In this document: positions 10,135-54,432 of the stretch, piece by piece
Layout of the letters: the number at the start of each line of letters is the position of its first letter
How positions within the stretch are numbered: the first letter of the stretch is position 1
Assembly: GCA_031267755.1 (NCBI GenBank)
Contig: JAIRYP010000004.1
Span: forward strand, 10,686-74,685
Origin: Clostridiales bacterium
GTDB lineage: Bacteria; Bacillota; Clostridia; Monoglobales; JAIRYP01
DNA: 64,000 nucleotides
Reading direction: 5' to 3'
Position numbers and translations under genes: made by a program
The notes under the pieces: generated by a model
The model's input: only the letters and a program-made list of their open reading frames with translations
The model's database searches: none
Told to the model about the DNA's origin: nothing

Positions 10135-10621
10135 ATTCTTTTTCGTGCTCCTTTTTGCATTCAATTTCCATAACCCATGCTTCATACGAATACCCAAGAC
10201 CTTCAATAGGGACCTTTTCACCGATTAATATTTTGTTATTACCAATAATTATTGCATCATCACTTTCAATTCCTTTTGTTTCTAAAGTTATGATAACATC
10301 TAATTTGTTTGGAAATTTTGTTACAACATATTTTTTTTCTGTTTTATTTAATACGGTATCTTCATAATCAACAATTTCTACATTTTTTATAGTTGCCTTA
10401 TCTTTTTCGTTTGAACTTGTTTTGATAATATCATTAATTTTTAAGGGCATAAAAATTTCTGAATCTTGGTTTTGCAATTTTAATTTATAATTTATTATCA
10501 CTGGTTGGGGGTTTATTTTCTTTTTATCAACCTTAACCTTTAAAAATCCAAGATACATAATACACTGAATTATTACAATAATAATTAAAACATCAATTAA
10601 ATTAAATTTAATTTTTTTCAT
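10124..10621 (-). CDS. DUF4330-like membrane-anchored protein (paralog 1)
   Basis: MKKIKFNLIDVLIIIVII forms an N-terminal anchor followed by a beta-rich body. It has the same architecture as the downstream neighbour. Confidence 0.6.
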   Translation of the reverse strand: MKKIKFNLIDVLIIIVIIQCIMYLGFLKVKVDKKKINPQPVIINYKLKLQNQDSEIFMPLKINDIIKTSSNEKDKATIKNVEIVDYEDTVLNKTEKKYVVTKFPNKLDVIITLETKGIESDDAIIIGNNKILIGEKVPIEGLGYSYEAWVMEIECKKEHEKEYVY

Positions 10622-19829: not shown

Positions 19830-21182
19830 TTACATTCTACTTTTAACAGTATTGTCTTTTTTTGACTTAGTGATTGTAGGATGCATAATTGTTGTTGGCA
19901 AATTTGAATCATCTTTGTCATATGTCAATTGTGTGCTAGAAACAGTTTCTTTTAAAGGACTATAATGAAACTGCTCTCCAAATCTTCGTGATAGTTTCAT
20001 CACATTCTTGGGCGAAGTTTCAGTTACCTTATCATCATTAACTTCAAACCATTTTCCATTAAGTTTAAGACACGTATAACTGTGTCCTCCCACTAGCCCC
20101 TTAACATTTTTGCCATAAGTTCTTATACGGACACCCGAACTATTGTATTTTGATATACTTCCATCAGGATGTCTCACAAACTTGCATTTTTCTTGGAATT
20201 CTTTATATGCTTTTGGATATTCTTCGCTAAGTTCTTTTGTTAAAAGTTCTCTTGTTTTTTCGCTATCCCCACTTTTATTGGGCGGTGAAAAAAGATAAAA
20301 AACTCCATTTCTACGTTTTTCAATATAACCTCCATCCTCTAAACAAAATCTATTATTTATATAAGTGACATTTATTGTAACCTGAGTCAATTCATGAGGT
20401 TTACCTTCAATTTCAAAAAATCTAGGCACTTCTCTTTCTTGCGTTTTCCACGGCATTCTCCCTAACCATTCTTCATCGTTGGTTTCATTTTCTGTTTTTT
20501 TTCCGCTAACAGCAGAAAAACCATATCCAAAATGAAGTCTTTCTTTTAAATCAAAAGTTTTTTTCACGATTTCTTCAGATACAGGAGAAATTGAATCTAT
20601 TTCTACAGGATTTTTATAAGCTGTCTGGCTTTCTTTAATAATTTTATTAACAAAAAGATTATAAGTAATAAGAAAATTTCCACCGCTTATTTTTTTAATT
20701 CCAACTAAGTTTAAAACTTTCCTCGCAATTTTCTTCATTTTTGATATTCCAAATTCTTCTTTATTTTCTACACTCGTAAAAATTTTTTTCATTTCATGAC
20801 AAAGAGGTTGTTCTTCTTCACTCCATTCTCCATATAACACCGGATGGTACATATTGCTGTTTATAATAGCATGAAAAACTGCATTTAAAAAACACGTACC
20901 TTCGCTGTTTGCAAACCTAGCTATGAGTTCTTTATTAAATTCTTTTGACAATAAATTTTTTTTATCTTCTTTTTCTGCTAAATCTTCACGCAATTTATAA
21001 CTTTTCATTTTTTCACTATTTTTATTTTTATCGAATCGATTATAAATTCCAAAACTGAGAATTAATAAAAGGAAATTAATAATCATTGAAGAAAAATATA
21101 AAAAAATATTAGAACGTGCACCGGTCTTTGACACACTTAACACCACGCATTTTAAGTAAAATAAATGTACAATAAATTTCAC
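19830..21182 (-). CDS. membrane-anchored USP-like (peptidase C19-like) cysteine protease, putative deubiquitinase-type enzyme
   Basis: Cys box FANSEGTCFLNAVFHAI (Cys97 at nt 20894-20892). His box VGGHSYTCLKLNGKWFEVNDDKV (His367 at nt 20084-20082). A hydrophobic segment spans about aa 26-47. The track start is GTG, and the true start is uncertain (ATG at 21086 is also possible). Confidence 0.6.
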   Translation of the reverse strand: MKFIVHLFYLKCVVLSVSKTGARSNIFLYFSSMIINFLLLILSFGIYNRFDKNKNSEKMKSYKLREDLAEKEDKKNLLSKEFNKELIARFANSEGTCFLNAVFHAIINSNMYHPVLYGEWSEEEQPLCHEMKKIFTSVENKEEFGISKMKKIARKVLNLVGIKKISGGNFLITYNLFVNKIIKESQTAYKNPVEIDSISPVSEEIVKKTFDLKERLHFGYGFSAVSGKKTENETNDEEWLGRMPWKTQEREVPRFFEIEGKPHELTQVTINVTYINNRFCLEDGGYIEKRRNGVFYLFSPPNKSGDSEKTRELLTKELSEEYPKAYKEFQEKCKFVRHPDGSISKYNSSGVRIRTYGKNVKGLVGGHSYTCLKLNGKWFEVNDDKVTETSPKNVMKLSRRFGEQFHYSPLKETVSSTQLTYDKDDSNLPTTIMHPTITKSKKDNTVKSRM

Positions 21183-22055: not shown

Positions 22056-22350
22056 AAAAGTCTCCTCTATTAATTTATGTTTAAATACATTTCATAAATT
22101 AATTTAATTTTTGAACTTTGATTTATATTTTTTACAAATTTAAACATTATTTCCAAAATTTGTCAAGTTTTTTTAAAAAAATAATTAATATTTTTACCAA
22201 AAATTTATATTTTTTAATATGTTTTAATGGATTTTTTTATTTTATGAATATTTATGAGCTAAAATTAAGTTTTTAGTTTTTTTGTTTTTATTTTCAACTT
22301 ATGAAATTAAATATAAAAATAAATTTGCATCAACGTTTTAGGCAATATCT

Positions 22351-22605
22351 TCATTTACAGGAACATAGAAAAAGCTCAATAGATTTGGTTAGTAAATCAA
22401 TATAACTGTATGTTGTAAGCTTATCAAAATTGTTTTTTGAATCGATATCGAATCTAACAACAAATACGCTTGGATATACGGATATTATACTGCCCTTTTG
22501 TATGTTATTATCTTTTTTGTTTTTTTTAGAAACTAACGTTATTTTTTTTCCAATATTTTTTCTTATAGCATTTTTAATTTTTATTAAATCATTTTTATTA
22601 TACAA
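22351..22605 (-). CDS. veg: Veg protein
   Basis: An 84-aa protein. The blocks YPSVFVVRFD and TYSYIDLLTKSIEL match the Veg pattern. Confidence 0.85.
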   Translation of the reverse strand: MYNKNDLIKIKNAIRKNIGKKITLVSKKNKKDNNIQKGSIISVYPSVFVVRFDIDSKNNFDKLTTYSYIDLLTKSIELFLCSCK

Positions 22606-22824
22606 AAAGTTTTTCCTCCTCTGGCCATTAAAGAAATTTTAACATACAATTACTTTTTTGTAAATATATAACTTACATGAGATTCTTAATATTTTTTAGT
22701 AAAATATTTTAAAAATTTTCTTAGTATTTTTACAAATTTGATATATGTGGATTATCAAGAAAGTGTAAAATATTTTTGATGTGATGTTTGTGGTAATATA
22801 AATGAGTGTTAGGGGAGATTAAGT

Positions 22825-23491: not shown

Positions 23492-24307
23492 ATGATTGTA
23501 TACGCTTTAGTTGGTGAAAGCGGAACCGGGAAAAGTTATAATAGTCTGCGAGTTGCTAAGGAAAATAATATATATTATGTTATAGATGACGGAATACTTA
23601 TTCACAAAAATAAAATTTTATGTGGAAAGTCTGCAAAAAAAGAGCGTACAAAAGTTGCTTCAGTAAAGTGCGCCTTATTTTTCGATAAAAAACATAGAGA
23701 TGATATGAAAAAAACAATAAAAGAAAAAAAGATAAATTTTCTTCTCATACTTGGAACATCAAAGAAAATGGTTGAAAAAATTGCTGAAAATTTGGGACCT
23801 TTTAAAATTTCAAAATTTATTAGTATGGAACAAATTTCATCTTCTGAAATTATTGAATACGCAAAGAAAATGAGGCAAGAGCAAGGCAAACATATTATTC
23901 CGGTTCCTACACTTGAAGTTAGGAAGCATTTTTTAGGATATTTTTTAGATCCTATAAAACTCAGTTTTATAAGAAAAAATAAAGTGATTGTTGAGGAAAA
24001 AACGGTAATTCGTCCGAGTTTTAGTTTTTTTGGAGAATATTTTGTCTCAAATAAAGTAATTTTTGATATTTGCGTTTATGAAATTCTGAAATTTAAAGAA
24101 GTTCAAAAGATTGTTAATGTCAGAATTTTTGGTATTAAAATTAAAAAGTTAAGCTTAGTAATTGATCTTATTTTATTGTATCCTTCTGATTTAAAAGGCG
24201 TTTGCAGTAAAGTTTCTAAAATACTTAGGAAAAAAATTGAAGATTTTACATCACTCAATGTAAAGAATATAAAAGTTAATGTAAAGACAATTGTTTTTAA
24301 AAAATAA
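23492..24307 (+). CDS. hypothetical fusion protein: N-terminal P-loop NTPase-like domain plus C-terminal Asp23/Gls24-like domain
   Basis: Walker A-like LVGESGTGKS occurs at aa 6-15. The C-terminal ~100 aa (GEYFVSNKVIFDICVYEILKFKEVQKIVNVRI to LNVKNIKVNVKTI) has the alternating pattern of Asp23-family proteins. Confidence 0.5.
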   Translation: MIVYALVGESGTGKSYNSLRVAKENNIYYVIDDGILIHKNKILCGKSAKKERTKVASVKCALFFDKKHRDDMKKTIKEKKINFLLILGTSKKMVEKIAENLGPFKISKFISMEQISSSEIIEYAKKMRQEQGKHIIPVPTLEVRKHFLGYFLDPIKLSFIRKNKVIVEEKTVIRPSFSFFGEYFVSNKVIFDICVYEILKFKEVQKIVNVRIFGIKIKKLSLVIDLILLYPSDLKGVCSKVSKILRKKIEDFTSLNVKNIKVNVKTIVFKK

Positions 24308-25203: not shown

Positions 25204-25218
25204 AGTTTGGAGTCCATT

Positions 25219-25842
25219 ATGATTTACAATGATGACAACGTTATTGTTTGTTTTTGTCCTGAGTGCGAAGAAATTTGCATTAAAGAAGTTTATTTTTTTA
25301 ATTTTCACACTTTAAAGGGAAAAACAATCATATGTGAAAATTGTAAATCTGTTGTGGTTGAAATAGTTGTTGAGAGTATGAAAAAATATAAAATGAGATT
25401 TTTATGTTGTGAATGTGGAAACATTCACGAAACATTTTTAAATCCGTCGATTTTTTGGAGAAGTGAAATTTTTATTTATAAATGTCAAGTTACTAATGGA
25501 GTTTCTTTAATTACGGGAGAAAAAAATAATGTTTTTAAATTTGTTGAAACTTTGAAAGAAACTCAAGACATAAATACTTCAAGTATTGAAAATCTTCTTG
25601 AAGAAAGAGGTGAAAATCATGTTGTGTTTGCTGAAATTGTAAATGTAATAAGAGAAATAAACAAAAATAATAGAATTGTTTGCGAATGTGAAAATAGAGA
25701 CATAATTTTAACATTGAACAAAAAAAATATTAAATTTTTGTGTGAAAAGTGTAAGAATGTGAAGATAATAAAAGTTACTAAAAAGGAACTTGTTAAATTA
25801 AAAAAAGATGGCAAAATACATGTGAAAAAAATTTATTTATAA
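25219..25842 (+). CDS. hypothetical Cys-rich protein with repeated zinc-ribbon-like CxxC pairs
   Basis: The track starts at TTG 25207, but the ATG at 25219 lies 6 nt after GGAG. Cys pairs: CFCPEC/CENC, CCEC with a distal C, and CEC/CEKC. Confidence 0.55.
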   Translation: MIYNDDNVIVCFCPECEEICIKEVYFFNFHTLKGKTIICENCKSVVVEIVVESMKKYKMRFLCCECGNIHETFLNPSIFWRSEIFIYKCQVTNGVSLITGEKNNVFKFVETLKETQDINTSSIENLLEERGENHVVFAEIVNVIREINKNNRIVCECENRDIILTLNKKNIKFLCEKCKNVKIIKVTKKELVKLKKDGKIHVKKIYL

Positions 25843-25971
25843 AGGAAGCTAAAATTATAAAAGTATAATTTTGGTTACTATAAATCGAATTATAAATTTT
25901 ATAAAATTCAACGTCTGTCTTTTTTTAAAGTATTACATATGTAAATATTTTGATGTGGAGGGAGTGTCATT

Positions 25972-26414
25972 ATGGAACTAACAAAAGAATATTTTGATAA
26001 TCGTTTTAATTCAATGTATGATCCTAGCACTTTTACTTTGCCATCTGAAATTGATAAACTTGATGAAGAAAAATTTTTAGAATTATTGGAAGAAAAGAAA
26101 ATTTTATACGGAATAGCAAATTTTATTGTACTCGGCGATTTAGAGCTTTCGGAAGGTTTTAAAAAAAACTTAATAAACAAAATGAAATTTTTAATTCACT
26201 TGACGATAAAGAACTTGTAGATTTATTTTGCAATATTCAAATACTTGCTTTAGGAGTATATCCTGAAATTTTTAAAGAAGGAGAAGTAATTCTAAAAAAA
26301 TTATTGCAGGGTTCAAATATAGAAGATGAAGAAATTTTAAAAATCTATTTAGATTATGCAAAAAATATGAAAATTTTAAACAATAAACCATATAATCAAC
26401 TAAATTTGAATTAA
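25972..26414 (+). pseudogene. hypothetical acidic helical protein split by a frameshift at an A8 tract (26161-26168)
   Basis: Frame 1 (25972..26220) ends soon after the A8 run. The shifted frame is open from 26163 to the TAA at 26412-26414. It reads KKLNKQNEIFNSLDDKELVDLFCNIQILALGVYPEIFKEGEVILKKLLQGSNIEDEEILKIYLDYAKNMKILNNKPYNQLNLN and has no start codon of its own. One extra A would fuse the two parts into a single ~147-aa ORF. Confidence 0.6.
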
Positions 26415-27086
26415 ACAGCGAAAAAATTTTGTATAAAACTTCGGGATCAATTAATGCCTAATTTTTTGATATTTAGGTTTATTGTGAAGATTTGGAATAA
26501 AGTTTGTGATTTTTTTAATTTTAAAACCCATAGGAACCAATCGGTGAAAGTTTTTAAACGTTTGTATATAAAATTTGAGGACATTGTGGAAAAAATAAAA
26601 TTTAGAGGACAATTATTATCGCCAGTTAGTTTTAGTTTTCCAAACGAGGTTAAATCTCCTAATGATCTGACAAAATAATGTATAAATAATTTTTAAACTT
26701 ATCTCTGGATTTTTATAAACGTTGAATGGGTTAAGAATTTTTATATTTAAAATTTTTTTTCAAGAAAAATGCCATGAAACAGTTTTGTATGTTATTATTA
26801 AGAGCTTGTTTTTGGCTTTTTGTCGTTATTTTTCGTTTATCTTCTTTTTAAAATTTTTTTTATTTATTGTTTAATAATATGATTATTGTTTAACATTTGG
26901 CGATTTTTGTTTTTTTAAAACCCAAATTATTAGTGGATTATTCTTATAACTAATATGTTTTATATTTGTAATTTTAAAATTTACCGGCTTTAAGTGTTAA
27001 ATGAATAATAAATTTAATCGAGTAATAAAAATTATAAAAACGTACAGATTATAAGATGCTGTTATTTTGATTGGAGTTGATGAGAT

Positions 27087-29598: not shown

Positions 29599-32055
29599 TT
29601 AATGAAGTTCCTCAATTTTTTCTTTTTCTGAGTTTAATTTTGCGATTCCAACTAGTTTGGTGTTTTTAGAAAATTTCATAAGCTTCGCGCCAATTGTGTT
29701 TCTTCCTATTGTTCTTATATTTTCAGTATTCATTCTGATGATTGTTCCTTCAGAAGTTATAAGCATAATGTCATCTTTATCATTTACGATTTTAAAGCCT
29801 ATTACAAAACCAGTATTTTTTGAAATTTTATATGCTCTAAGTCCTTTTCCACCTCGATTTTGAACTTTAAAATCAGAAAGTTTTACTTTTTTACCAAAAC
29901 CATTTTCCGTAACAATTAAAAGTTTAGCGTTGTCTACAATATTATTCATGCTTATTGCAAAATCGTTTTCGTGAAACTTAATGCTTCTCACTCCACGTGC
30001 TTTTCGTCCCATTGATCTTACGTCTTTTTCATGAAATCTTATAATTAAACCGGTGCGAGTTCCAATTAATATTTCATCTTTTCCATTTGTAATTTTAACT
30101 TTTATAAGTTCATCATCTTCATCGAGTACGATTCCAATTTTGCCGTTTCTATTTATATTTTCAAATTCAATTAAGTTCGTTTTTTTTATAATTCCTTTTT
30201 TTGTTGCAATTATAAGAAATTTGCCTTCTTCATATTTTCTAATTGGAATTACAGTGGAAATTTTTTCGTTTTCTTCTAATTGCAATATGTTAACAATTGG
30301 CATACCTTTTGCTTGTCTTCCGGTTTCTGGAATTTGGTATGCCTTAAGTTTATAAACTTTGCCTTTGTTTGTAAAAAAGAGGATATGACAATGAGTTGTT
30401 GTAACAAACATTGTTTTAACAAAATCTTCTTCACGTGTTTGAATTCCTGTAACACCTTTTCCACCTTTAGCTTGAACTTTGTAGACATCTGTAGACATTC
30501 TTTTGATATAGTCAAATTGTGTTATGGTTATGACGTTATCAGTCTCTTCCATTAGATCTTCGATAAAAATTTCATCATCAAAAGGCTCGATTGAAGTTCT
30601 TCTTTCGTCACCAAATTTGTTTTTTATTTTTAAAAGATCTTCTTTGATATTTTCCAAAATTTTTTCTTCATTTCCAAGAGTTATTTCAATTTTTTTTATA
30701 ATTCCAACAAGTTCTTCATATTCTTTTTCGATTTTTTCAGTTTCAAGATTTGCAAGTTTTCCAAGACGCATTTCAACAATTGCCTTCGTTTGTAAGTTAT
30801 CCAAACCATATTTTAATTTTAAACTTTCTTCGGCGGTGATAATTGTTTTCGAAGTTTTGATTATTTTTATGATTTCATCTATTTTTTCTAGAGCAATTTT
30901 TATGCCTTCAAGCAAATGTTTACGATTTTCAGCTTTTTTTTTGTCGAAATTCAGTTTGCGAATTAAAATTTCTTTTTGAAAATTTAAATAATTAACTAAA
31001 ATTTCTTTTAAATTTAAAATTTTTGGCTCGTTATCAACAAGTGCAAGCATAATCACATTAAATGAATTTTCGAGTTCGGTAAATTTATAAAGTTGATTGA
31101 GTATTACTGATGAATTTACGTCACGTTTTAATTCAACTACAATTCTTAATCCTTCTTTTCCAGATTCGTCACGCATATCAGATATGCCTTCGATTTTTTT
31201 GTCACGAATTACATCAGCCATTTTTTCAATAAGTTTTGATTTGCTCAACATGTATGGGATTTCTGTGAAAACTATTCTTTGACGTTTTTCTTTCCAATTT
31301 TCAACTGCGCTTTTTGCTCGAATTATAAGTTTTCCGCGGCCTGTGTTGTAAGCGTTTTTTATTCCTTCTAACCCCATAATCGTAGCTCCAGTTGGAAAAT
31401 CTGGGGCTTTTATATATTCAATGAGTTCGTTTATTGTAATTTCGGGGTTTTCAATAAGTGCAATTATACCATCAATTAATTCTGAAATATTGTGAGGAGG
31501 TATATTTGTTGCCATTCCCACAGCAATGCCGCTTGAACCATTTGCAAGTAAGTTTGGAAATTTCGAAGGTAAAACTGAGGGTTCGGTTCTTGTGTCATCA
31601 TAATTTGGTACGTAATTTACTGTATTTTTTTCTATATCAACAAGCATTTCCATGGATAATTTTGACATTCTGGCTTCTGTGTAACGGTACGCTGCAGGCG
31701 CATCACCATCAATTGATCCAAAGTTTCCATGACCATTAATCAAAGGATATCTGAGAGAAAAGTTTTGCGCCATACGAACCAAACTGTCGTATATTGCGGC
31801 ATCACCATGAGGGTGATATCTTCCAAGGACGTTTCCAACAGTGGTTGCTGATTTTTTAAATGCCTTGTCAGCGTGAATACCATCTTCATTCATAGCATAT
31901 AAAATTCTTCTATGAACAGGTTTAAGGCCATCTCTTACGTCAGGCAACGCTCGGCCGATTATAATTGACATTGAATAATCTATATAGGATTTTTTCATTT
32001 CTTCATTTATTTCAACAGGAATTATTTTAAGCTTACTTTCATCAAAAAATTTCAT
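29599..32055 (-). CDS. gyrA: DNA gyrase subunit A
   Basis: Contains [16 protein letters not shown], the catalytic-Tyr block [10 protein letters not shown], the QRDR-like segment [10 protein letters not shown], and C-terminal beta-pinwheel repeats with a GyrA-box-like QAKGGKG. Confidence 0.96.
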
Positions 32056-32568
32056 TTATTTTAATTCACCATTCTAAATATAATTTAAATATTTCAAGCT
32101 TCATTATAACAAAATTGTATTAAAGATTATAAAAAGTTATTTTAGGAAAAATATGGAAATAAATAATTATTTTTTATGAATTAAAATTTTATTAGGATAT
32201 TGTTTGTTATAGAATTATTTTTGTAAATGAAAATTCTACAAAGTTTTTCAATAATAAACTTTATTGAAAAGGGGTTTGAATAAATAGATGAGAAAAAATA
32301 ATTGCCGAGATAAGGCGCGCAAAAACACGCGGAATGGCCGCCGAAAACATTGAGACCTTCCGTGTTTGAAAACATAAATATAAAGCTGTAATTCAATTGA
32401 AACTGATGTTAATATTTGTGAGGACTTATTAGGGCCTGTTGTTTTAGAATCAGTTACAGCAGTGTTACAAAGTTATTCAACTAAACTATTTTCAAAAAAG
32501 AAAAATAATGCTAAGCTTAACTATATAGATAAAAAATAATTATTTTAATTTTAGGAGGAATTTTAAAG

Positions 32569-33438
32569 TTGAGCGCAACGGAATCAATCGTTGAAAAATA
32601 TGGAATAAAAAATCTGTCTGATCTTGAAGAATTGATAGAAAATACTGAATTCGAAATAGATTCATTGGGAGAAGAAGCGGAAAATTATCCTGAAATGGAA
32701 AAATTTTTATCTAATTTATACAAATTACGTTTGAAATTGGAAAAGGAAAATGCTTCTCCTGAAGCACCACCTGAATCAACAGATGCGGAAACGTCTTCAG
32801 TTTGGGAAAATGAAACTGCCCCTCCTGAAGCATCACCTGAATCGGAAGAAATAGTTTTAGAATCACCTGCTGAATCGGCAGAATCGAAAACATTTTCTAT
32901 AGAAGAAGTAAACCTCGAAACATATCCTACTTGTGAAAGTAAAATTGCCTCTTCTGAAGTACCTCCAGTAGCACCACCTGCTATAGAAAATTTTAGAACA
33001 AAAGAAGAATTTCAAACTTTAATTCGAGAATGTGCTAAACAAGAGGAACCTGTGGATTGGAGTGTTGTAGACAGTTCAGACGAGTTGAGACGTTGTAGTG
33101 TTGATACTTTAGAGACGTATCTAGCGTATTCGGAGGTTATGGATTTTAAAATTGATCGTATCCTTAAACATGAAAATGAAAATGATTTGGAATTACTTTA
33201 CACATACTTTGGCAGACTTATTGAACTTATCTTTGAACAACTTAAATGTATCGAACATACCTTTGAACAACGTGAACGTATGGTATGTATATTGGGCCGA
33301 TGCGAATGTATTAGAAGTACCTTTGAACAAACGAAATGTACTGAATACAAAAAATTGTTAAGAGATGAAATTGGTAGGACCAGATTTTTTAGAGATTTGA
33401 ACGAGAGATGTCAAATAGTAAGAGCTACAAACAGATAA
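32569..33438 (+). CDS. orphan acidic protein with Pro/Glu/Ser repeats and a C-terminal Cys-containing FEQ repeat
   Basis: TTG start 10 nt after AGGAGG. A 22-nt near-repeat, ctcctgaagca(c/t)cacctgaatc, occurs at 32756-32777 and 32822-32843. ctttgaacaa occurs three times (33231, 33261, 33321), encoding (I/T)FEQ-x-KC-x-E. No signal peptide is visible. Confidence 0.65.
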   Translation: MSATESIVEKYGIKNLSDLEELIENTEFEIDSLGEEAENYPEMEKFLSNLYKLRLKLEKENASPEAPPESTDAETSSVWENETAPPEASPESEEIVLESPAESAESKTFSIEEVNLETYPTCESKIASSEVPPVAPPAIENFRTKEEFQTLIRECAKQEEPVDWSVVDSSDELRRCSVDTLETYLAYSEVMDFKIDRILKHENENDLELLYTYFGRLIELIFEQLKCIEHTFEQRERMVCILGRCECIRSTFEQTKCTEYKKLLRDEIGRTRFFRDLNERCQIVRATNR

Positions 33439-34210
33439 AGACGCCTGAAACAACTGGGCAAATTAAAACAAAGTAATCTTGAGAGGAAAAGAAAATTATC
33501 ACTTGAACTGTTATCATCTCAAATTGTAAGGAGAGAGTACAGAGAATTTTTAAAATAAAACAGATAAAACGAATGATAAACTGTTAAGTGATTTATTTCA
33601 AGAGAGTTAAACATTTGAAATTTTTTGTTTAAAAAAACATAATGTAAGATTGTCGAGTTTTGAATATATTAAAATAAAGATGAGATTGCAATTAAAGTCG
33701 CATTGAAAAAAATATCAGAGCAGATTTTACCATTTTCGTTTTTTTAATTTTATAAAGCTTACATTATTTGCGCTGAAGCAATGTTTTGCGATATTTTATG
33801 AAAAAAGAAATTTGATAGAACAAAAGGGAATTTATAGATCAATAAATTGTAATGATGATTCTTCAGCGTTACAGTCGCATAGTTACAGCAACAACACATT
33901 TTCCAGATTTTAATTTATTTGAGATTTGGTTTTGTTTTATTATTGAGTTATCAATTTATTTTTCATTTCATAGTACTTCTATAAATTTCAGTGAATTTCA
34001 TAGTATTCTTGTTTCTACGGTATGCCACAGTTTTATATTATTCGCCATTCGATAAATCTCTCAGGTTATTTGTTTTGCAGTTATTATGTTGAAATATATT
34101 ATTTTATAGCAGAATGTTTACATGAATATTTAAATGCACATAAGAAATAAACTAGACATAATATATAATAATAGCAATAAAATACCAACATTTCAAGGAG
34201 GGAGAATAAC

Positions 34211-34345
34211 ATGAATAAAAATTTTATTTACCCACCAAAGCATTATGAATACGGATATTTTAATAGAAAAATTACAAGCGAATTCATTAAAGGTTTGATA
34301 CTCAACAATTTATTTAGAGTGTATCATAGACCTTTTGAAAGATAA
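34211..34345 (+). CDS. candidate small protein (44 aa)
   Basis: It falls below the track's length cut-off. The ATG at 34211 lies about 8 nt after a near-perfect SD (AAGGAGGGAG). Product: MNKNFIYPPKHYEYGYFNRKITSEFIKGLILNNLFRVYHRPFER. It converges on the tRNA cluster. Confidence 0.4.
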   Translation: MNKNFIYPPKHYEYGYFNRKITSEFIKGLILNNLFRVYHRPFER

Positions 34346-34383
34346 AACTATAGATTGTATGCTATAAAACTTATAATTATTAG

Positions 34384-34457
34384 TGGAGGCGCCACCCAGA
34401 TTTGAACTGGGGATAAAGCTTTTGCAGAGCTTTGCCTTACCACTTGGCCATGGCGCC
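34384..34457 (-). tRNA. tRNA-Cys (anticodon GCA)
   Basis: The reverse complement GGCGCCATGGCCAAGTGGTAAGGCAAAGCTCTGCAAAAGCTTTATCCCCAGTTCAAATCTGGGTGGCGCCTCCA folds as a cloverleaf. The anticodon loop is CTGCAAA and CCA is encoded. Confidence 0.9.
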
Positions 34458-34485
34458 AATTATTAAGATAGCATTCCCTAAAAAA

Positions 34486-34560
34486 TGGAGCGGAAGACGA
34501 GGATCGAACTCGCGACTCTCACCTTGGCAAGGTGATGCTCTACCACTGAGCCACTTCCGC
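34486..34560 (-). tRNA. tRNA-Gly (anticodon GCC)
   Basis: The reverse complement is GCGGAAGTGGCTCAGTGGTAGAGCATCACCTTGCCAAGGTGAGAGTCGCGAGTTCGATCCTCGTCTTCCGCTCCA. The anticodon loop is TTGCCAA. Confidence 0.9.
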
Positions 34561-34714
34561 ATTGTTTCTTCAGTTTTATAATTTTAGTATACGTACAACC
34601 GCCGTAGAAGTGTAAAAAAATTAATTTTTTGTCTTTTGTAAATTTTTAAATAAATTCCTTTTAAAATATAATTATATGATTTTAATGCGAACGTTTTACA
34701 ATTGTTTACATTTT

Positions 34715-34790
<76 letters not shown>

Positions 34791-34801
34791 AACCATAAAA
34801 T

Positions 34802-34878
34802 TGGCGACCCGAAAGGGATTTGAACCCTCGACCTCCAGCGTGACAGGCTGGCATTCTAACCATCTGAACTATCGGGCC
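34802..34878 (-). tRNA. tRNA-Asp (anticodon GTC)
   Basis: The reverse complement is GGCCCGATAGTTCAGATGGTTAGAATGCCAGCCTGTCACGCTGGAGGTCGAGGGTTCAAATCCCTTTCGGGTCGCCA. The anticodon loop is CTGTCAC. Confidence 0.9.
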
Positions 34879-34881
34879 AAA

Positions 34882-34957
34882 TGGTAGGCACAACAGGGAT
34901 CGAACCTGTGACCCTCTGCTTGTAAGGCAGATGCTCTCCCAGCTGAGCTATGCGCCC
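34882..34957 (-). tRNA. tRNA-Val (anticodon TAC)
   Basis: The reverse complement is GGGCGCATAGCTCAGCTGGGAGAGCATCTGCCTTACAAGCAGAGGGTCACAGGTTCGATCCCTGTTGTGCCTACCA. The anticodon loop is CTTACAA. The acceptor stem has two G-U pairs. Confidence 0.85.
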
Positions 34958-35000
34958 TTAAAAATATCGAACATGCTTATCTTAAAATATTAAAGTTTGC

Positions 35001-35022
35001 TCTCCGGAAATTTAGCCGGAGA
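35001..35022 (-). terminator. GC-rich hairpin between csp and the tRNA cluster (probable csp terminator)
   Basis: TCTCCGG-aaatttag-CCGGAGA forms a 7-bp stem with T/A-rich flanks on both sides. Confidence 0.5.
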
Positions 35023-35040
35023 ATTTTATAATTTTTTTAT

Positions 35041-35253
35041 TTAATCGCAAGGACAAACTTCAGATGCCTGAGGGCCTTTGTGTCCATCTACGATATAGAA
35101 TTCAACGTTCGCTCCTTCTTCCAACGTTTTATAACCTTCTGCTTCAATTGCTGAAAAATGCACGAAAACATCCGAACCGGTTTCGCTTTCGATGAAACCA
35201 TAACCCTTTTCAGCATTAAACCACTTTACTTTTCCCTTTTGTTTCTTTACCAT
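35041..35253 (-). CDS. cold-shock protein (CspA family)
   Basis: Contains [15 protein letters not shown] (RNP1) and VFVHFSAI (RNP2). 70 aa. Confidence 0.95.
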
Positions 35254-35554
35254 TGCACAACCCCACTTTTTCGTTCAACGAACTTAAAATTTAGTGTCAA
35301 TAAAAACACTACGCCGGATACTATCATAATTATTTCTTGCAGTCAACACTGTTTAAATTTTTTTTAAAAATATTTTAATTTTTGTTTTAATAATTTATAA
35401 AATATTCCTATAGAATGTATTTTCATCATTTTTCATAAAATTTTATTATAAATTTTGATTTTTTAAATAATTCTTTACTTTTTATTTTATTTATGTAATA
35501 ATGAAGATTATTATTTTGAATATTTAAATTTTTTGAACTGTAGGGGTGAGTTGA

Positions 35555-38500
35555 ATGTTGTTAAATAATAATTATAAAGTTTATATTCGTTTTTCAGCAG
35601 ATGGTGCTGGTTTAAGCAGTGATTTTTTTAGCGATGAACAAAGAGGTGTAATTGATAATTTATTTAAAAATGTTATTTTAAATAATTTTTTTGAAGTTTT
35701 TTATAGAGTCAATGAAATAAAGGGAAATGGCGTTGTTTTTGCAAGACAAATTTTAGATTATTTAGAAGGTAGAAGTTCAGAAATTAAAAAAATTAAATTT
35801 ACATTGGATGGCGTTGAAATATTAGGTTTTTATTGTGATTCAAAAATATTTTCTGCTGATTTTAAACTATTATATGAATTTGATCATGAAGATGAGTTTT
35901 TTAAGAAATATGGTAGTGATGAACGGGTTAAAATTGATGGTTGCGGGCGTCCTTTATATATACCCCGTAATGAAAATTTTGACGATATTATTGCTATGCA
36001 ATTGTCATACGACTTCAAAGATCAAAACTTACCTATAATTCGAAATTTAATTAATGAATTGGAATTAAATTATTTAGATTTAAAGACATCACTTGAAAGT
36101 TTATACTCATACATAAAATTTTCACCAAGTAGTTGTGCTAATAATTTTAAACAAATGAAAAAAACATTAGTTGACGAAGATACTTTAAATTTTCTTCGAG
36201 GAAATAATTGTCTAGTAAGTTTTTTTTGTGAATATTTAGGTGATAGATTTAAAAGTGAATTTTTTAATGCATTGAAAAAAATTGAAAAAAACGAAGATGA
36301 TGGTTTAGAAATTTTTAATACTTATAGAATTTTAATAAATGGTGAATTAAAAACTGTTTACATTTGGGGAGAAAGCTTATTTGATGCAGAATCAGGAACT
36401 AGGTTATGCGGTTTTGATTTTTCTTATAAAAAAGCATTCGATGATTATGGAAATTTTGTTGAATTAAAGGATGTACTTGGTGAAGCGTTAGATCTTTCGA
36501 ATTTAAATGATGGAACTAGTGAGTGTTATCACTTAAATCGATCAATTTTTCTTCCAGTTCATAAACTTAATTATAATTTGGGAATTTTTAAAGAATTTTT
36601 TAATCTTTTTAGAAGAAATAATGTTGAATATTCATTTTCAATTATTTCACAAGAATTATTTGGATTTAATTTAAGTGAAAAATTTGAAAAATTTAAATTT
36701 ATTATTAATTCCGATGCTCTTTCAAACAGAGCATTAGGAAATAAAAGTTTTGGCGTTTATGATTCTTATTTTATAAAAGAATTTTCGAAACTTCTTTCAT
36801 TTCCTTTTTTTGATTGTATTTTAGAAAATATAGTTTCTAATAATACTAATATTGGTTCTAAGCATAACGCACTTTTTTTTATTTTAAAAGATATTTTTGA
36901 AAGAAATTATATTGATTTATTTTATTTTACGAAAATTGTTATTAATAATTCTGAGTTTTCTGTTTATAGAATAGGTAATGATTTATTTGATATTAAAACG
37001 TTAAAATTGGTTGCTAGTTTCAATCCAGATTCAGATAAATTTTTAGATTCAAGTTTAAATGAAATCAAAGTATACGTTAAAGATGAAGATGAAGATGAAA
37101 ATAAAGTTCTAGAAGTTTTAACTTTAGAAGATTTGGTTTTTAATAGTGATTGTTATAAATTGCCTGATTTTTTGCATCCCTTTCAATACTTGAATTTAAG
37201 TACTTTAGAAATTTTAAAAAGTTTTCATGATTACGCGGTTTCTAATCTGTCATCAATGTCAAATGAAATGTTTGAAAAAGTTTCTTTACGATTAAGTGAT
37301 ATTGAAGAAGTTAATGTTTTCAACGCCCATGAAAAAAAATTATTGAGTGAAATTGTAAAAAGTGATTATTGGGCGTTTTTGCATGGAATATTTACGAATA
37401 TTTCAGAAGATACCACAATCGATAATTTTATTTATTCTATTTCGCATAATGTTTTGTTTTTGGAATATAGTGCTAACGTTAATGGCTCAGATTGTACTAT
37501 ACATATTGATAAAAAACACGGTATTGTGTACGATAAGGATTTTAAACCTTTATTCTATGTAAATGAGTCTGGCAATTTTATAAATTTTTTTGGTGAAGAA
37601 ATTACTTTAATAATAAACGAAGAAGAAATTAAAGATTTAAATAATATTAATATGAATCAGCCTTCTGATAGAGAAATTTCTCCACTTGTACTTAGTTTGT
37701 TAGCTGATCGTAGTATTTTGGAAAGACTCTTAGTATTGTTTAAAGAACGTGGGGATGTAGCTTATGATGAATTTCAAGATTTTATGAATAATGAAATAAT
37801 AGAGTCAAAACGTATATTAGTTGAAGATGAATTTTTTGATATTATGGTACGTGAGATTGATGGTTTATCTTTTAAAAAGGCTTTTACAAAAGATCAAAGG
37901 GATATACTTGAAGCTTGCAAAAGTGACCCTTTTGTACTAAAAATTTTACCACTTTTGCAGGGCTTGGAGAATGTTGAAGAATTTGAAGAAACATGTTCTT
38001 ATTTTTTAAATGATAGATCGTTTAATGGTTTTGAAGTTGAAATTTCAGGTGTGAAAACAGAAGTAGTTGTGTTTGATAATGAAATTTATTCGGCGGTTTC
38101 TGGTGAAACTTTGGGTCGGATAGTGGGAAACGTTATAATGTCTGAGGGCCATCCTGATGTAGTTCTTAATGCGACAAAATTGGATGGCAATTCTCTTCTT
38201 ATTGAAATAGAAGGAGACTATGTTTTTGATATTGAAAATTTAGATCCTGCAGAGGGCAATCCTGCAGTATTTGAAAACTTAAAGAAATTACTTGGTTTTA
38301 GTGGAAGTGCACAAGAAGCTTTTTACGAACTTTTTAAAAAGGAAGAAGATATAGATGGAAGCACATTAGAACGAATGCAAAATGCATTAAGGAAAGATGT
38401 ACCAGGAGTAGAGTGGAATGATGGTGATGCAGAAGATGACGATGTAGAAGTTAAACACACGGATGATGAACATGCAGATGATGATGTAAAACACAGCAAA

Positions 38501-39268
38501 CATACAGATATTGTTGGAGATTCTCATGTTATAGCCGCACATATTCCAAAGGTTGTTAAAAATGAGTTAGAATCTGATCCTGTTTTTCCGTTATCATCGA
38601 ATCTTCCAAAACCAAATGATGAAACCAAATCGGTAGAAACTTTTGAATTGTGCGATAAACGTAAAGAAGAAATTTTTAAAATGCGTTCTAAAGCTTTTAT
38701 ACAAAAAGACTTTGAGACCCGTCGTAGTATTCTTTTGTCATTATATCAAACGCTTGGTTTAAACCATGATCAAGAAACTCTTTTTAAAAAAATATTTTTT
38801 TGTTATACGGTTGATTTGTTTGCAAAAAATGGAATTTTTAGCACAGAAGATAAAGAAAAAATTGAAGATATTTTTAAGAATAATCCTAAAGCACAAACTG
38901 ACTTATTTGAATTATTTGAAAATGGAAATGAAAAAGATTTCCTAGAATATTTTAAAAATTATAAACGATTTAGCTCGGGTCTAATTGGTAATTTAAAGCA
39001 GCTTTTTGTGATTGTTTTAAATGGTTTTTTGGATATATTTGGTTATAAAAAAAATCAACGCACTGTTGAAGCAGTGCAAAAAACTTTTTGTGAAACATGC
39101 GATTCAGATTTGTGTTTTTTATTTAATAAACCTGTGCTTTTAAATGAAAGAGTTTCTACATGTTTGTTTGTTAATGCAGATGAAATTGAAAAACATAGAG
39201 AGTTAGAGATTTTAGCTAAATTTCCAAAAGAAACTAAGGATAGGAGTGATGTTTTGCCCAAAATTTAA
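35555..39268 (+). CDS. orphan giant protein (1237 aa) built from five ~185-aa repeat units, an acidic His-rich linker and a helical C-terminal domain
   Basis: ATG lies 6 nt after GGGGTGAG. It is a single uninterrupted ORF with no Walker, HExxH or other catalytic motifs seen, no signal peptide and no TM segment. The repeated hairpin-like motif lies at aa 81-110, 257-290, 460-490, 636-670 and 826-860. Confidence 0.75.
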   Translation: MLLNNNYKVYIRFSADGAGLSSDFFSDEQRGVIDNLFKNVILNNFFEVFYRVNEIKGNGVVFARQILDYLEGRSSEIKKIKFTLDGVEILGFYCDSKIFSADFKLLYEFDHEDEFFKKYGSDERVKIDGCGRPLYIPRNENFDDIIAMQLSYDFKDQNLPIIRNLINELELNYLDLKTSLESLYSYIKFSPSSCANNFKQMKKTLVDEDTLNFLRGNNCLVSFFCEYLGDRFKSEFFNALKKIEKNEDDGLEIFNTYRILINGELKTVYIWGESLFDAESGTRLCGFDFSYKKAFDDYGNFVELKDVLGEALDLSNLNDGTSECYHLNRSIFLPVHKLNYNLGIFKEFFNLFRRNNVEYSFSIISQELFGFNLSEKFEKFKFIINSDALSNRALGNKSFGVYDSYFIKEFSKLLSFPFFDCILENIVSNNTNIGSKHNALFFILKDIFERNYIDLFYFTKIVINNSEFSVYRIGNDLFDIKTLKLVASFNPDSDKFLDSSLNEIKVYVKDEDEDENKVLEVLTLEDLVFNSDCYKLPDFLHPFQYLNLSTLEILKSFHDYAVSNLSSMSNEMFEKVSLRLSDIEEVNVFNAHEKKLLSEIVKSDYWAFLHGIFTNISEDTTIDNFIYSISHNVLFLEYSANVNGSDCTIHIDKKHGIVYDKDFKPLFYVNESGNFINFFGEEITLIINEEEIKDLNNINMNQPSDREISPLVLSLLADRSILERLLVLFKERGDVAYDEFQDFMNNEIIESKRILVEDEFFDIMVREIDGLSFKKAFTKDQRDILEACKSDPFVLKILPLLQGLENVEEFEETCSYFLNDRSFNGFEVEISGVKTEVVVFDNEIYSAVSGETLGRIVGNVIMSEGHPDVVLNATKLDGNSLLIEIEGDYVFDIENLDPAEGNPAVFENLKKLLGFSGSAQEAFYELFKKEEDIDGSTLERMQNALRKDVPGVEWNDGDAEDDDVEVKHTDDEHADDDVKHSKHTDIVGDSHVIAAHIPKVVKNELESDPVFPLSSNLPKPNDETKSVETFELCDKRKEEIFKMRSKAFIQKDFETRRSILLSLYQTLGLNHDQETLFKKIFFCYTVDLFAKNGIFSTEDKEKIEDIFKNNPKAQTDLFELFENGNEKDFLEYFKNYKRFSSGLIGNLKQLFVIVLNGFLDIFGYKKNQRTVEAVQKTFCETCDSDLCFLFNKPVLLNERVSTCLFVNADEIEKHRELEILAKFPKETKDRSDVLPKI

Positions 39269-39558
39269 TCATAATAAAATAAAAATTTAAGACATATGAT
39301 ATTATTATTTTAATTTTTTAAATTATTTTTAAAATTTTATTGAAATTTCAGTGTTGTTTAATATATAATAAGAATTAAAATTTTTAAAAAATATTGAAGG
39401 ATGGGGATGATATTTAAGATATTAGTAATAATAAATGTGTATTATAAATAATAAAATTTTTTGTAGTTTTATATTGATTTTTTAATTTATTTGTGCTATC
39501 ATGACTATGTTGTATTTTTTAGTTAGATGAATTTAAAATTTTTTGGAGGATGAATTTT

Positions 39559-41076
39559 ATGTTGAAAAAACTTTTTTTGTTAAAAGCTATAAGAGAATCA
39601 GGTTCAGCTGGTGCAGTACCAGCTGCAGCATCAGCTGCAGCATCAGCTGCAGGTGGTGTTGCAGCACCCGCGACAAAAGCGTTAACAGATACTCAAATTA
39701 CAACTATTACAAGTTTTGTTGCTCTGCCTGGCTCTGAACTATTACTTAAACGTTGGAATGATTTGGCAAAAACTGATCCAGCTGCTGCAAATGCTCAGTT
39801 ATTGAAAGATGCTACGCAATATAGTCTTAAATTAGGCGATGCCGAAGACGCTTCTCCATATTATGTAGTTGATGATTTAATCATTGCACAAGATGGAACT
39901 GTTGCAGGCGCGATTGTTGGAAATGAATTTAAGAGTTCAGATAAATCATCAGCTTTAGTTGTTAAGTTACCAACTGTTGATGAAGCGATTTTGCTAGGTG
40001 ATGATGCGAAACAACATTTGTCAAAATTAGGCGCTCCTATAACAGATGGTTCTCTATATAAAGCTGTTGATGCCTTTGTGAAAATTCCTGTCGATGAATT
40101 AAAATTAATTCAGGTTGAAATTGAAAAAGCTAAGGGTAAAACCGGTGCAGGCTTTTCAAATGAACTTTCTAAACTCAAACTTGAAGCACTTGTCAAGGCG
40201 CCGGCTGTAATTCCACCAGGAAAAGGTCCGGGCGATTCAGATCTATCAGCTCAACCACCAGGAAAAGGTCCGGGCGATTCAGATCTATCAGCTCAACCAC
40301 AAACTCTTGAACAAGTAAATGCTGAAATAGCAAGAATTGATTCTGAAATTGATGCTTTTCACAAAAGAATTGTGTCTGAAGGAACGTTTAATGTCGCAGC
40401 TTTGATTCAGAATCAAAAAGATTTTTTCGAAGTTGTTGATAAACCATATGATTCTTCAGTTGCATTGTTAGCTTTGGTGGTTGCTTCTTCAGCACTGGAA
40501 ATGAAAGACAAAAAAGTTGATGGCAAGGATCAAAAACTTATTAGTGTTGCTGACGCTCGTAAACTTAGAGCTATTCTTTCAGATGCAAAGAGTGATCCAA
40601 AAAAACTCGAGGCATATGGGAAACTTTTGAAAGAAGGTAAGGTAAAAGAGGCTGCTGCACTCATTACGGGCGACACTCATGATAATGCTATTGTACGTTT
40701 CATTATAGCAATTGGTTCTGCAATTGCAGGTGTGTTAGGACTTTGTGCCGAGAGAAGAAATTGGGAGATAATTAAAAAAGAGATTGTTGAAGCTTCTAAA
40801 GTAAAAGAAGTTACATTTAAAGTAGAACCATCCGATAAAGTTTATTCCATTTTTACTCCAAAACCAGAAGATGTTAAAGAACTGCAAGTAAAGACAAGAG
40901 AAAAAGAAGAACTTTCTAAAATTGCGCAAAAATTAGGAAGCGGTAAGGCATCGGGTGCTGATGCAGCAAAAGCCCCAACAGTAAAGCCTGCTGATGCAGC
41001 AAAAACCACAGCAAAGCCTGCGGGGGGTGCTGATGCAACAAAAACCACAGCAAAGCCTGCTGCTAATGGTAAATAA
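39559..41076 (+). CDS. orphan Ala/Lys/Pro-rich protein with one hydrophobic helix, internal tandem repeats and one copy of the giant-protein module
   Basis: The track start at 39550 directly abuts GGAGG, whereas the ATG at 39559 has 9-nt spacing. Features in track numbering: (AAAS)n near the N-terminus, the module at aa 45-125, PPGKGPGDSDLSAQ twice, a hydrophobic helix at aa ~380-400, and a C-terminal tail made of three imperfect ADA(A/T)K-x(2,3)-KPA units. Confidence 0.75.
   Translation: MLKKLFLLKAIRESGSAGAVPAAASAAASAAGGVAAPATKALTDTQITTITSFVALPGSELLLKRWNDLAKTDPAAANAQLLKDATQYSLKLGDAEDASPYYVVDDLIIAQDGTVAGAIVGNEFKSSDKSSALVVKLPTVDEAILLGDDAKQHLSKLGAPITDGSLYKAVDAFVKIPVDELKLIQVEIEKAKGKTGAGFSNELSKLKLEALVKAPAVIPPGKGPGDSDLSAQPPGKGPGDSDLSAQPQTLEQVNAEIARIDSEIDAFHKRIVSEGTFNVAALIQNQKDFFEVVDKPYDSSVALLALVVASSALEMKDKKVDGKDQKLISVADARKLRAILSDAKSDPKKLEAYGKLLKEGKVKEAAALITGDTHDNAIVRFIIAIGSAIAGVLGLCAERRNWEIIKKEIVEASKVKEVTFKVEPSDKVYSIFTPKPEDVKELQVKTREKEELSKIAQKLGSGKASGADAAKAPTVKPADAAKTTAKPAGGADATKTTAKPAANGK
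40213..40296 (+). repeat. perfect 42-bp tandem duplication inside the 508-aa ORF
   Basis: ccaccaggaaaaggtccgggcgattcagatctatcagctcaa occurs at 40213-40254 and again, identical, at 40255-40296. It is followed by ccac, the start of a third unit. The repeat is in frame (14 aa). Confidence 0.95.
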
Positions 41077-41094
41077 TTAAGATTTTAAATTTTA

Positions 41095-41132
41095 AATAAT
41101 CCAAGGCGTGAAAACGTCATGGATTATTTTTT
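41095..41132 (+). terminator. rho-independent terminator of the 508-aa gene
   Basis: AATAATCCA-aggcgtgaaaacgtca-TGGATTATT is followed by a T run, 19 nt after the stop codon. Confidence 0.75.
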
Positions 41133-41516
41133 ATGAATTAGATAATTTAATTGAATTTATGTTTTTAATAATTAACAAATTTAAAAAATAAAAAATGTTT
41201 CTATTAATTAAAATCTAAAAGTTTAATTAGAACTTGGGATTTTAAAAAGTTAATTTTAAATTAAATTTTGTTTGAAAAATAAATAAAGTTTATTTAAATA
41301 AAAATTTACCGTGATACAAATAGGGATGGCGTGGCAAAATGTTATGATAAATATAAAAAGAAGGCCAAAAGCAAAAATTAAATTGATATTAAAACTTGAT
41401 AAATATCAAAATTTTGGTTCTAACCTGATATTACAAACAGGAAATTGTTTCGCAAAATTTTATTATTTGTGATCAAAAAAAGTTTAGGTGTATAAAAATT
41501 AAAATTTTAAATTTTA

Positions 41517-41555
41517 AATAATCCAAAGCGTGAAAGTATCATGGATTATTTTTTT
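41517..41555 (+). terminator. second, near-identical copy of the same terminator, with no gene in front of it
   Basis: AATAATCCA-aagcgtgaaagtatca-TGGATTATT is followed by a T run. The ~50-nt block including the upstream aaattttaaattttaaat is repeated from 41081-41132. Confidence 0.7.
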
Positions 41556-41656
41556 GGAAAAAATGAATTTGAAAATTTTATTAATTTTTATTTAAATTAA
41601 TTTTAAAGAAAAATTATTTTAATACAGATTGTTTATGTGAAAAATCGAGGTTTTTT

Positions 41657-53799: not shown

Positions 53800-54432
53800 A
53801 TGAGTGAAAATAATGATAAAACAAAGAGAATTTTATTATGTTTTTTAAGCGTTATGTTACTAGGAATGAGCACAGCACTGTGTATGAAATCAGGTTTTGG
53901 AACAAATTCAGTTGCAACGCTTTTTAGCGGAATTTCGAAAGTTACAAAATTAAACATTGGTTTTACAGCCAATACTATTAACACGGTACTGTCGATTGTT
54001 ATTTTTATTAAAAATAAAAAATATATAAATATTGGAACGATAGTTTATGCAGTATTTATGGGACATGCGATAAATTTTATAATTTTTTTGTATGATTTTT
54101 TGAATATACCAAATATTTTAGTTATTAAAATATTTGATTCTATCGTAGGATGTTTTTTATGCTTTCTTTCAGTTGGAATGTTTGTTGCCGCTGGAGTTGG
54201 TGTTAATCCTTGGGCGGCGCTTGGTTTAATTCTTAGAGATAAATTTGGCAAATCCTTTGGGATTATGAAAATGGTGGTCGATGTTTCTGCATTAATAATT
54301 GGTTATTTGTTAGGCGGGAAAATTGGAATCATCACAATTGTTACTGCATTTCTAACGGGACCATGTGCAGAGAAAATTTCAAATAATATTCGTAATTTTT
54401 TAAGTAAAAATGGTGCGGGTGGAGAGACTTGA
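53800..54432 (+). CDS. YczE/DUF6198-like membrane protein
   Basis: It appears to be two internally similar halves. The second half reads GVGVNPWAALGLILRDKFGKSFGIMKMVVDVSALIIGYLLGGKIGIITIVTAFLTGP. The last 22 nt overlap tRNA-Leu on the opposite strand. Confidence 0.5.
   Translation: MSENNDKTKRILLCFLSVMLLGMSTALCMKSGFGTNSVATLFSGISKVTKLNIGFTANTINTVLSIVIFIKNKKYINIGTIVYAVFMGHAINFIIFLYDFLNIPNILVIKIFDSIVGCFLCFLSVGMFVAAGVGVNPWAALGLILRDKFGKSFGIMKMVVDVSALIIGYLLGGKIGIITIVTAFLTGPCAEKISNNIRNFLSKNGAGGET

Follow-up and report, generated by a model that had tools for sequence, protein, structure and literature searches.

In spore-forming bacteria, proteins that lack signal peptides and evolve fast are typical of the coat and exosporium layers; coat and exosporium proteins are often very acidic, Cys-containing or repetitive, and they are poorly conserved between spore-forming lineages. 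The three genes described here, which we call A, B and C, lie between gyrA and dnaX in the 64-kb window (64,000 nucleotides, 27.4% G+C; the whole stretch of DNA that was analysed), which is part of a 106.8-kb contig of a metagenome-assembled genome (MAG) named "Clostridiales bacterium" (locus tags LBJ09_). A first-pass annotation, made from the sequence alone, had taken this region of about 9 kb to be an island of atypical composition that carries one evolving family of surface, spore-coat or host-interaction genes. We conclude that A, B and C are probably independent, native, lineage-restricted genes that constitute neither an acquired island nor a family. The interval would then be an ordinary, native part of the chromosome in a lineage of endospore-forming Clostridia that branches deeply and has been poorly sampled, and three unrelated, taxonomically restricted genes would happen to sit in it among conserved genes (five tRNA genes and the cold-shock gene csp).

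The three open reading frames (ORFs) of 289, 1237 and 508 amino acids (aa) recorded in the first-pass annotation are present where it had placed them, all on the plus strand: A at 32569–33438 (289 aa; MDR1391680.1), B at 35555–39268 (1237 aa; MDR1391682.1) and C at 39550–41076 (508 aa) or, from a second start, 39559–41076 (505 aa; MDR1391683.1). All three products are annotated as hypothetical proteins. At a stop-codon frequency of 0.081 per codon the chance of open frames of 289, 505 and 1237 codons is about 1e-10.6, 1e-18 and 1e-45, respectively, and the G+C content of all three falls from the first to the second to the third codon position (GC1 > GC2 > GC3), as it does in the neighbouring housekeeping genes. 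The Shine-Dalgarno sites, all previously rated as good, are strong for A (an AGGAGG site with a TTG start) and C and only moderate for B. Because of these ribosome-binding sites, the codon-position gradient and ORF lengths beyond chance, A, B and C are real protein-coding genes. In the case of C, a GGAGG at 39545–39549 directly adjoins the first ATG (39550) and is 9 nt away from the second (39559); since this spacing fits the second ATG, and NCBI chose the same start, C most likely starts at 39559 and is 505 aa long.

In composition these genes resemble their surroundings. The G+C content of third codon positions (GC3) is 0.201, 0.146 and 0.181 in A, B and C, respectively, and 0.196 ± 0.026 in the 42 other window ORFs, and the synonymous-codon log-likelihood deviations of the three (−0.042, +0.049 and −0.032) compare with a standard deviation of 0.044 among those ORFs, so both measures lie inside the window's spread. 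When the G+C content of each gene was predicted from its amino-acid content by means of the window's own synonymous codon preferences, values of 0.342, 0.287 and 0.388 were obtained for A, B and C, respectively, compared with the observed 0.346, 0.271 and 0.390. The four hand counts behind the earlier claim of an atypical composition (28, 35, 14 and 7 G+C in lines of 60 nt) are all exact, and a shift is indeed visible on single lines, but it is local and not foreign: the interval as a whole has 29.9% G+C against 27.4% for the window, at a 1-kb scale values of 0.36–0.38 are reached only across the tRNA genes and the 3' half of C, and the GC-rich 60-nt lines correspond to tRNAs or to Ala, Pro and Gly codons. 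The shifts are thus the DNA shadow of Ala/Pro/Gly/Glu-rich proteins and of tRNAs and give no sign of another origin; gene G+C follows amino-acid content, and "compositionally atypical" is a description that we have to abandon. That C keeps 15.6% Ala in a genome of 27% G+C argues for selection on the C protein.

The orphan status of the three products stands, and for B and C it is stronger than could have been known when it was first proposed, as no homologue was found in billions of proteins. The three belong to no described family: none has a match above noise among the models of Pfam, NCBIfam, PHROGs and PADLOC or among the PDB sequences, and for B there is no Pfam match even at E ≤ 1. A word-indexed search of 5.8 billion protein clusters with B and C returned the self matches only, as did an exhaustive phmmer (HMMER) search of 1.84 billion representatives with residues 1–1200 of B, and a literature search by locus tag or accession of the genes gave only irrelevant results. 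The sole relative of A is a paralog in the same MAG (see below).

This isolation is in part an effect of sampling, because no available genome is close: the nearest GyrA among 185,579 species-representative genomes is 61% identical (in two Ructibacterium MAGs), and the nearest among metagenome contigs is 53% identical. Fast-evolving low-complexity proteins are expected to be undetectable at a GyrA identity of 61%. The gyrA-dnaX synteny is not comparable at such identities, and no homologues of A, B or C were found near gyrA in the first 80 loci of the genome-contig set (80 metagenome loci were not searched for them). The three could then be extremely diverged homologues of known proteins (of the coat, division or envelope, for example) in a fast-evolving, AT-rich, isolated lineage, an explanation to which we give perhaps a modest chance. 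In its favour, a GyrA identity of 61% would put the average protein close to or past the point at which homology can still be detected, divergence is sped up by AT bias and low complexity, and other ORFs in the window are also without families. More than 35 neighbouring window ORFs of at least 120 aa, however, do match Pfam or NCBIfam families, with E values from 1e-7 to 1e-208, and against these a 1237-aa protein without a match at E ≤ 1 is a real outlier; the empty phmmer search with B points the same way.

The product of A fits its earlier description as an acidic repeat protein, with a net charge of −31, 18% Glu and the repeats in place. Three parts follow one another in it: a conserved, helical N-terminal region, a stretch of acidic Pro/Glu-rich repeats (APPEAPPES-like, at about aa 60–140) and a C-terminal region in which a Cys-containing unit of about 10 residues (xxTFEQxKC) occurs three or four times. 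The gene carries the DNA repeat families D4, D6 and D11. The acidic repeat stretch is probably disordered, and hydropathy gives no hydrophobic N-terminus. The paralog, P0006 (LBJ09_03955), is encoded on another contig of the MAG; it is about 64% identical to A over residues 1–135, which span the helical N-terminus and the APPEAPPESTDAET repeats, and is unrelated beyond them. A and P0006 form a two-member family within this genome, with a conserved helical N-terminus and interchangeable C-termini.

B is Phe/Asn-rich (9% Phe) and has a net charge of −80, and by hydropathy it has neither a transmembrane segment nor a signal-like N-terminus. It had been called a modular giant, which is right insofar as it contains one internal duplication, the copies of which lie at 36200–36634 (residues ~216–360) and 36812–37264 (residues ~420–570); Smith-Waterman alignment of residues 228–348 with 433–557 gives z = 4.2, a score matched by 1 of 200 shuffles. 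No further modules were found: when the two copies were combined into a profile, it picked out no third one above the shuffle background, and a model of B as five modules of about 190 aa, drawn from recurring motifs, was rejected when only one pair was significant and the profile found no more. Farther on, an Asp/His-rich low-complexity linker (38405–38554; residues ~951–1000) has a net charge of −12 in 50 residues. In a low-confidence AlphaFold model this linker has no secondary structure and is followed by a mostly helical C-terminal region; the single-sequence AlphaFold2 model of residues 1–1200 has a mean pLDDT of 33.8 and is unusable. B is thus a predicted large, acidic, soluble protein without an export signal, which grew in part by one ancient internal duplication.

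C contains 15.6% Ala and 11.8% Lys, and both this composition and repeat family D2 agree with its earlier characterization as an Ala/Lys/Pro-rich protein with a basic tail; the Ala/Lys/Pro/Thr-rich C-terminal tail is encoded at 40942–41073, and A(D)A(T/A)KTTAKPA is an example of its repeats. The earlier claim that the three proteins lack signal peptides holds in that none has a signal-like N-terminus, and a transmembrane helix in C had been missed. This predicted helix, FIIAIGSAIAGVLGLCA, is encoded at 40699–40749 (residues 384–400 in the 508-aa numbering); the 19-residue Kyte-Doolittle maximum is 2.25 at residues 381–399, the only such segment in A, B and C, and in a single-sequence AlphaFold2 model that is itself unusable (mean pLDDT 40.6) it falls inside a long helix. 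It divides the protein into about 375–380 residues on one side and the Lys/Ala/Pro/Thr-rich tail of about 105 residues on the other, so that C is predicted to be a single-pass (bitopic) membrane protein, with 1 K/R on the N side of the helix and 4 K/R on the C side. A perfect 42-nt (14-residue) tandem duplication at 40213–40296 (PPGKGPGDSDLSAQ twice; repeat family D9, 100% identity) is a recent in-frame expansion and shows C to be a gene that is still changing.

Low complexity, extreme charge, repeats, the recent in-frame expansion, the swapped paralog C-terminus and the lack of enzyme motifs together suggest that A, B and C evolve fast and serve as structural or scaffold proteins, not as enzymes; a scan of the three for Walker A, HExxH, GxSxG, LPXTG, WxG and twin-arginine motifs found none, and there is one CxxC in B. 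The window encodes Spo0A, SpoIVA, YabQ and a sporulation-type sigma factor, from which it follows that the organism is a true endospore former and that the spore-layer idea stays alive. Since the organism forms spores and these proteins lack signal peptides and evolve this fast, our tentative guess is that they may belong to the spore envelope, as coat or exosporium components, or else to the cell envelope, with C as a membrane anchor; spore-envelope proteins would be made in the mother cell and hence without signal peptides. A bolder and distinctly less likely proposal is that A (with its paralog), B and C would make up a lineage-specific structural apparatus of this uncultured organism, for example a new spore-envelope layer or an attachment structure, anchored in the membrane by C and with the giant acidic B as its scaffold, with folds that have no known relatives.

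The first-pass annotation itself had gone further and read A, B and C as one evolving, functionally linked attachment, antigen or spore-layer system whose members share modules. The three genes do lie on one strand within 9 kb in an organism that forms spores, they encode low-complexity and Cys-containing repeats and a basic tail, and a paralog with a swapped C-terminus (A) and a recent in-frame duplication (C) are traits of fast-changing surface or structural proteins. The sequences, however, give no significant similarity among the three. BLASTP yields E ≥ 0.5 for all pairs (B-C, E = 0.51), and in whole-protein Smith-Waterman comparisons with shuffled sequences the scores were z = 2.0 for B-C (11 of 200 shuffles as good, p ~0.05), −0.1 for B-A and −0.2 for C-A. 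The best B-C alignment pairs residues 982–1046 of B with 403–461 of C (17 of 65 identical; "ESDPVF...PKPNDE...KEE" against "EPSDKVY...PKPEDV...KEE"). This weak motif similarity speaks for a link between the two; it is probably what had been seen as a module shared by the two largest genes, and at the BLASTP and shuffle values above it is not significant, so that the idea of one evolving family lacks the pairwise similarity it would need. Moreover, conserved genes of opposite orientation (the tRNA genes and csp) split A from B, so that these are not one operon, and each of the three genes appears to be transcribed as a unit of its own; they encode neither a signal peptide nor an LPXTG motif nor any recognised domain for binding to the cell wall, nothing shows co-regulation, and the window has four further ORFs without a family outside the interval. 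We regard a linked system of this kind as improbable.

The same conserved genes bear on the proposal that a foreign cassette was inserted near the tRNA cluster and brought host-interaction or surface genes with it. The cluster and the cold-shock gene had been reported as interleaved with the three genes, and ARAGORN, Rfam and the Pfam CSD family bear this out: five tRNA genes (Cys-GCA, Gly-GCC, Phe-GAA, Asp-GTC and Val-TAC; 66–69 bits with the Rfam tRNA model) occupy 34384–34957 on the minus strand, and csp (70 aa; CSD, E = 1.4e-28) occupies 35041–35253, also on the minus strand and divergent from B. A tRNA cluster within the interval, local GC peaks, long spacers and a coding density of 71% against 85%, and the lack of relatives of A, B and C in related taxa are all that one might expect of an acquired island. 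Nevertheless, tRNAs or Ala/Pro codons account for the GC peaks, the neighbours cannot be distinguished from A, B and C by GC3 or synonymous codon usage, and gene G+C is fully explained by amino acids. The interval contains no integrase or transposase, and no plausible ORFs beyond A, B, C, csp and the small ORFs described below; no PHROG, phage, plasmid or IMG/VR relatives of its proteins were found. It is bounded by no direct repeats, the sole long one (41072–41191 and 41494–41613) bracketing a spacer of about 300 nt before dnaX, and repeat and tRNA scans found no duplicated tRNA fragment of the kind that marks an attachment site. With conserved tRNA and csp genes in its middle the supposed island is not contiguous, and nothing marks the region as mobile or foreign. 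Insertion of such a cassette is thus a very unlikely origin for these genes.

The spacers of the interval measure 513, 772, 290 and 580 nt, and spacers of 560–1244 nt occur elsewhere in the window as well; the ORF-free stretch noticed after A is real (its longest ORF is 67 aa), and given those other long spacers it is not special. The view that the region is partly decaying or non-functional DNA, with ORFs that are relics or annotation artefacts and spacers that are dead genes, could cite these spacers and the 71% coding density, two small ORFs that match nothing (34211–34345 and 41311–41472) and a duplicated terminator that suggests local rearrangement, but we find it scarcely credible, given three large intact ORFs longer than chance with gene-like codon-position composition and ribosome-binding sites, an Ala-rich C kept against a strong AT bias, no coding remnants in the spacers and similar spacers across the window.

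Several points weigh against A, B and C being independent native genes of the kind we propose. The coding density of the interval is the lower one, and three of the seven family-less ORFs of the 64-kb window lie within 9 kb, a clustering that may reflect shared history or function. The weak B-C similarity could be a real short shared motif, which would not by itself establish common descent, and native codon usage may be compatible with an ancient transfer that has since been ameliorated. As to C, the positive-inside rule favours an N-terminal domain outside the cell and a cytoplasmic tail, an orientation that is ambiguous and would come with no convincing signal peptide. Finally, every role suggested here for A, B and C is read from sequence.

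The remaining parts of the interval are as follows. Upstream of A, gyrA (29599–32055, minus strand) is separated from A by a 513-nt spacer (32056–32568). A GC-richer patch in this spacer (32285–32450) has no Rfam match and no fold signal on either strand, and its only ORF is an implausible one of 71 codons on the minus strand. A replication origin was considered here, at the diverging gyrA and A genes with their AT-rich spacers, and rejected, as DnaA boxes are not enriched (15 matches against 19 expected). The AT-rich spacer 3' of A (33439–34210, 772 nt) contains no gene remnant by blastx against A, B, C and P0006 and no Rfam match, and its fold z is −1.8. It is followed by an ORF of 44 codons on the plus strand (34211–34345) that has a strong ribosome-binding site, AAGGAGGG, and whose status as a gene is uncertain; it has no Pfam match, and its residues 19–40 weakly resemble residues 30–51 of B (ILNNxFxVxxR; E = 3e-4, pairwise and without composition correction), so that it could represent either a small gene or a piece of a B-like one. 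The Rfam model of the cspA thermoregulator matches csp and its leader (34995–35353, minus strand) at 31.6 bits (E = 3.5e-5), which is below its gathering threshold of 78. B and C are separated by 290 nt (39269–39558).

Between C and dnaX (which begins at 41657, plus strand) the previously reported duplicated terminator is confirmed. Its first copy, a terminator-like hairpin followed by a T-run (41095–41132, plus strand; repeat D1), stands directly 3' of C, and the second (41520–41555, plus strand) stands 100 nt upstream of dnaX; both lie within the 120-nt repeat mentioned above and share a core of about 60 nt that is about 90% identical. The first copy is absent from a simple terminator scan because of its AT-rich stem. 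The approximately 390 nt between the hairpins (~41133–41519) have no Rfam match even in a permissive scan and a weak fold signal (z = −2.0), and contain an ORF of 53 codons (41311–41472) that belongs to no family. In Bacillus the SRP RNA gene sits upstream of dnaX; no SRP RNA was found in the window at Rfam gathering thresholds, nor by the permissive scan of 41133–41519. Hidden RNA genes in the spacers were rejected more generally, as there are no Rfam matches, permissive scans included, and no strong fold signal. Sporulation promoter motifs, sought by eye, were uninformative, since short AT-rich motifs are expected by chance in spacers of 20% G+C.

Outside the interval the window encodes, besides the sporulation proteins named above, a DivIB-like protein, YidC, PolC, PheT, RNase Y and the products of other housekeeping genes. 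The earlier statement that everything else in it is recognisable is roughly correct and has to be qualified for four other ORFs of 210–450 aa without a Pfam family (19830–21182, 23492–24307, 25207–25842 and 53800–54432); family-less genes are thus scattered through the genome and are not confined to the flagged interval. The last three of these (210–271 aa, plus strand) have no Pfam or NCBIfam family. The first (450 aa, minus strand), beside spo0A, has no solid family and gives a borderline match to PF00443, ubiquitin C-terminal hydrolase (residues 364–394; E = 4e-5, 23.8 bits against a cutoff of 23.9); if the match is true, such a eukaryote-like deubiquitinase in a member of the Clostridia would be a hint that the organism is associated with a eukaryote. 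Two adjacent, overlapping minus-strand ORFs, 9628–10221 and 10124–10621, both match DUF4330 (E = 3e-22 and 1e-15, respectively) and may represent either two genes in tandem or a single gene with a frameshift. The coding density of the window as a whole is about 83%, and AT-rich spacers of 560–1244 nt with 17–24% G+C and no ORF of at least 120 aa lie at 25843–27086, 22056–22824, 3884–4504 and elsewhere; such a number of long AT-rich spacers would fit ongoing gene decay in this genome.

These results matter mainly as a correction: the region should be listed neither as a foreign or atypical island nor as a gene family. Genuine orphans are left, including an unusually large protein (1237 aa) that has no relative in a total of about 15 billion predicted proteins, and the lineage to which they belong has no close sequenced relatives. 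Orphan genes are where lineage-specific biology sits, for example that of the spore surface or of envelope architecture, and the present evidence is a pointer for future sampling rather than a discovery.

Four kinds of known system offer comparisons. Genomic islands at tRNA genes resemble the interval in its position near tRNA genes, its cargo of no known function and its lower coding density; unlike them the interval is native in composition and codon usage, is without an integrase or flanking repeats, and has its tRNA genes inside it and not at its edge. The Gram-positive surface and adhesin proteins (LPXTG, SLH and choline-binding) have in common with A, B and C low-complexity repeats, Pro-rich segments and a Lys/Ala/Pro/Thr-rich tail, whereas A, B and C lack a signal peptide, an LPXTG motif and any SLH, CWB or LysM domain, and A and B look cytoplasmic; nor do the three have traits of type VII secretion substrates (WXG100/LXG), as there is no W-x-G in them and no Pfam match. 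The comparison with coat and exosporium proteins of Firmicutes (SpoVID, SafA and CotE of Bacillus; SipL and CdeC of Clostridioides) is made from general knowledge only. The organism has SpoIVA, the basal coat ATPase, and A and B are without a hydrophobic N-terminus, a trait that is not specific to coat proteins; on the other hand, there is no sequence similarity to these proteins, Pfam and NCBIfam find no LysM, CotH, collagen-like or coat-associated domain in A, B or C, and a transmembrane helix such as that of C is not usual in coat proteins. Like the orphan (ORFan) genes of bacteria, A, B and C have no outside homologue, use native codons, encode low-complexity, fast-changing sequence and lie amid conserved genes; they differ from them in the unusual size of B (1237 aa) and in the presence of three orphans within 9 kb.

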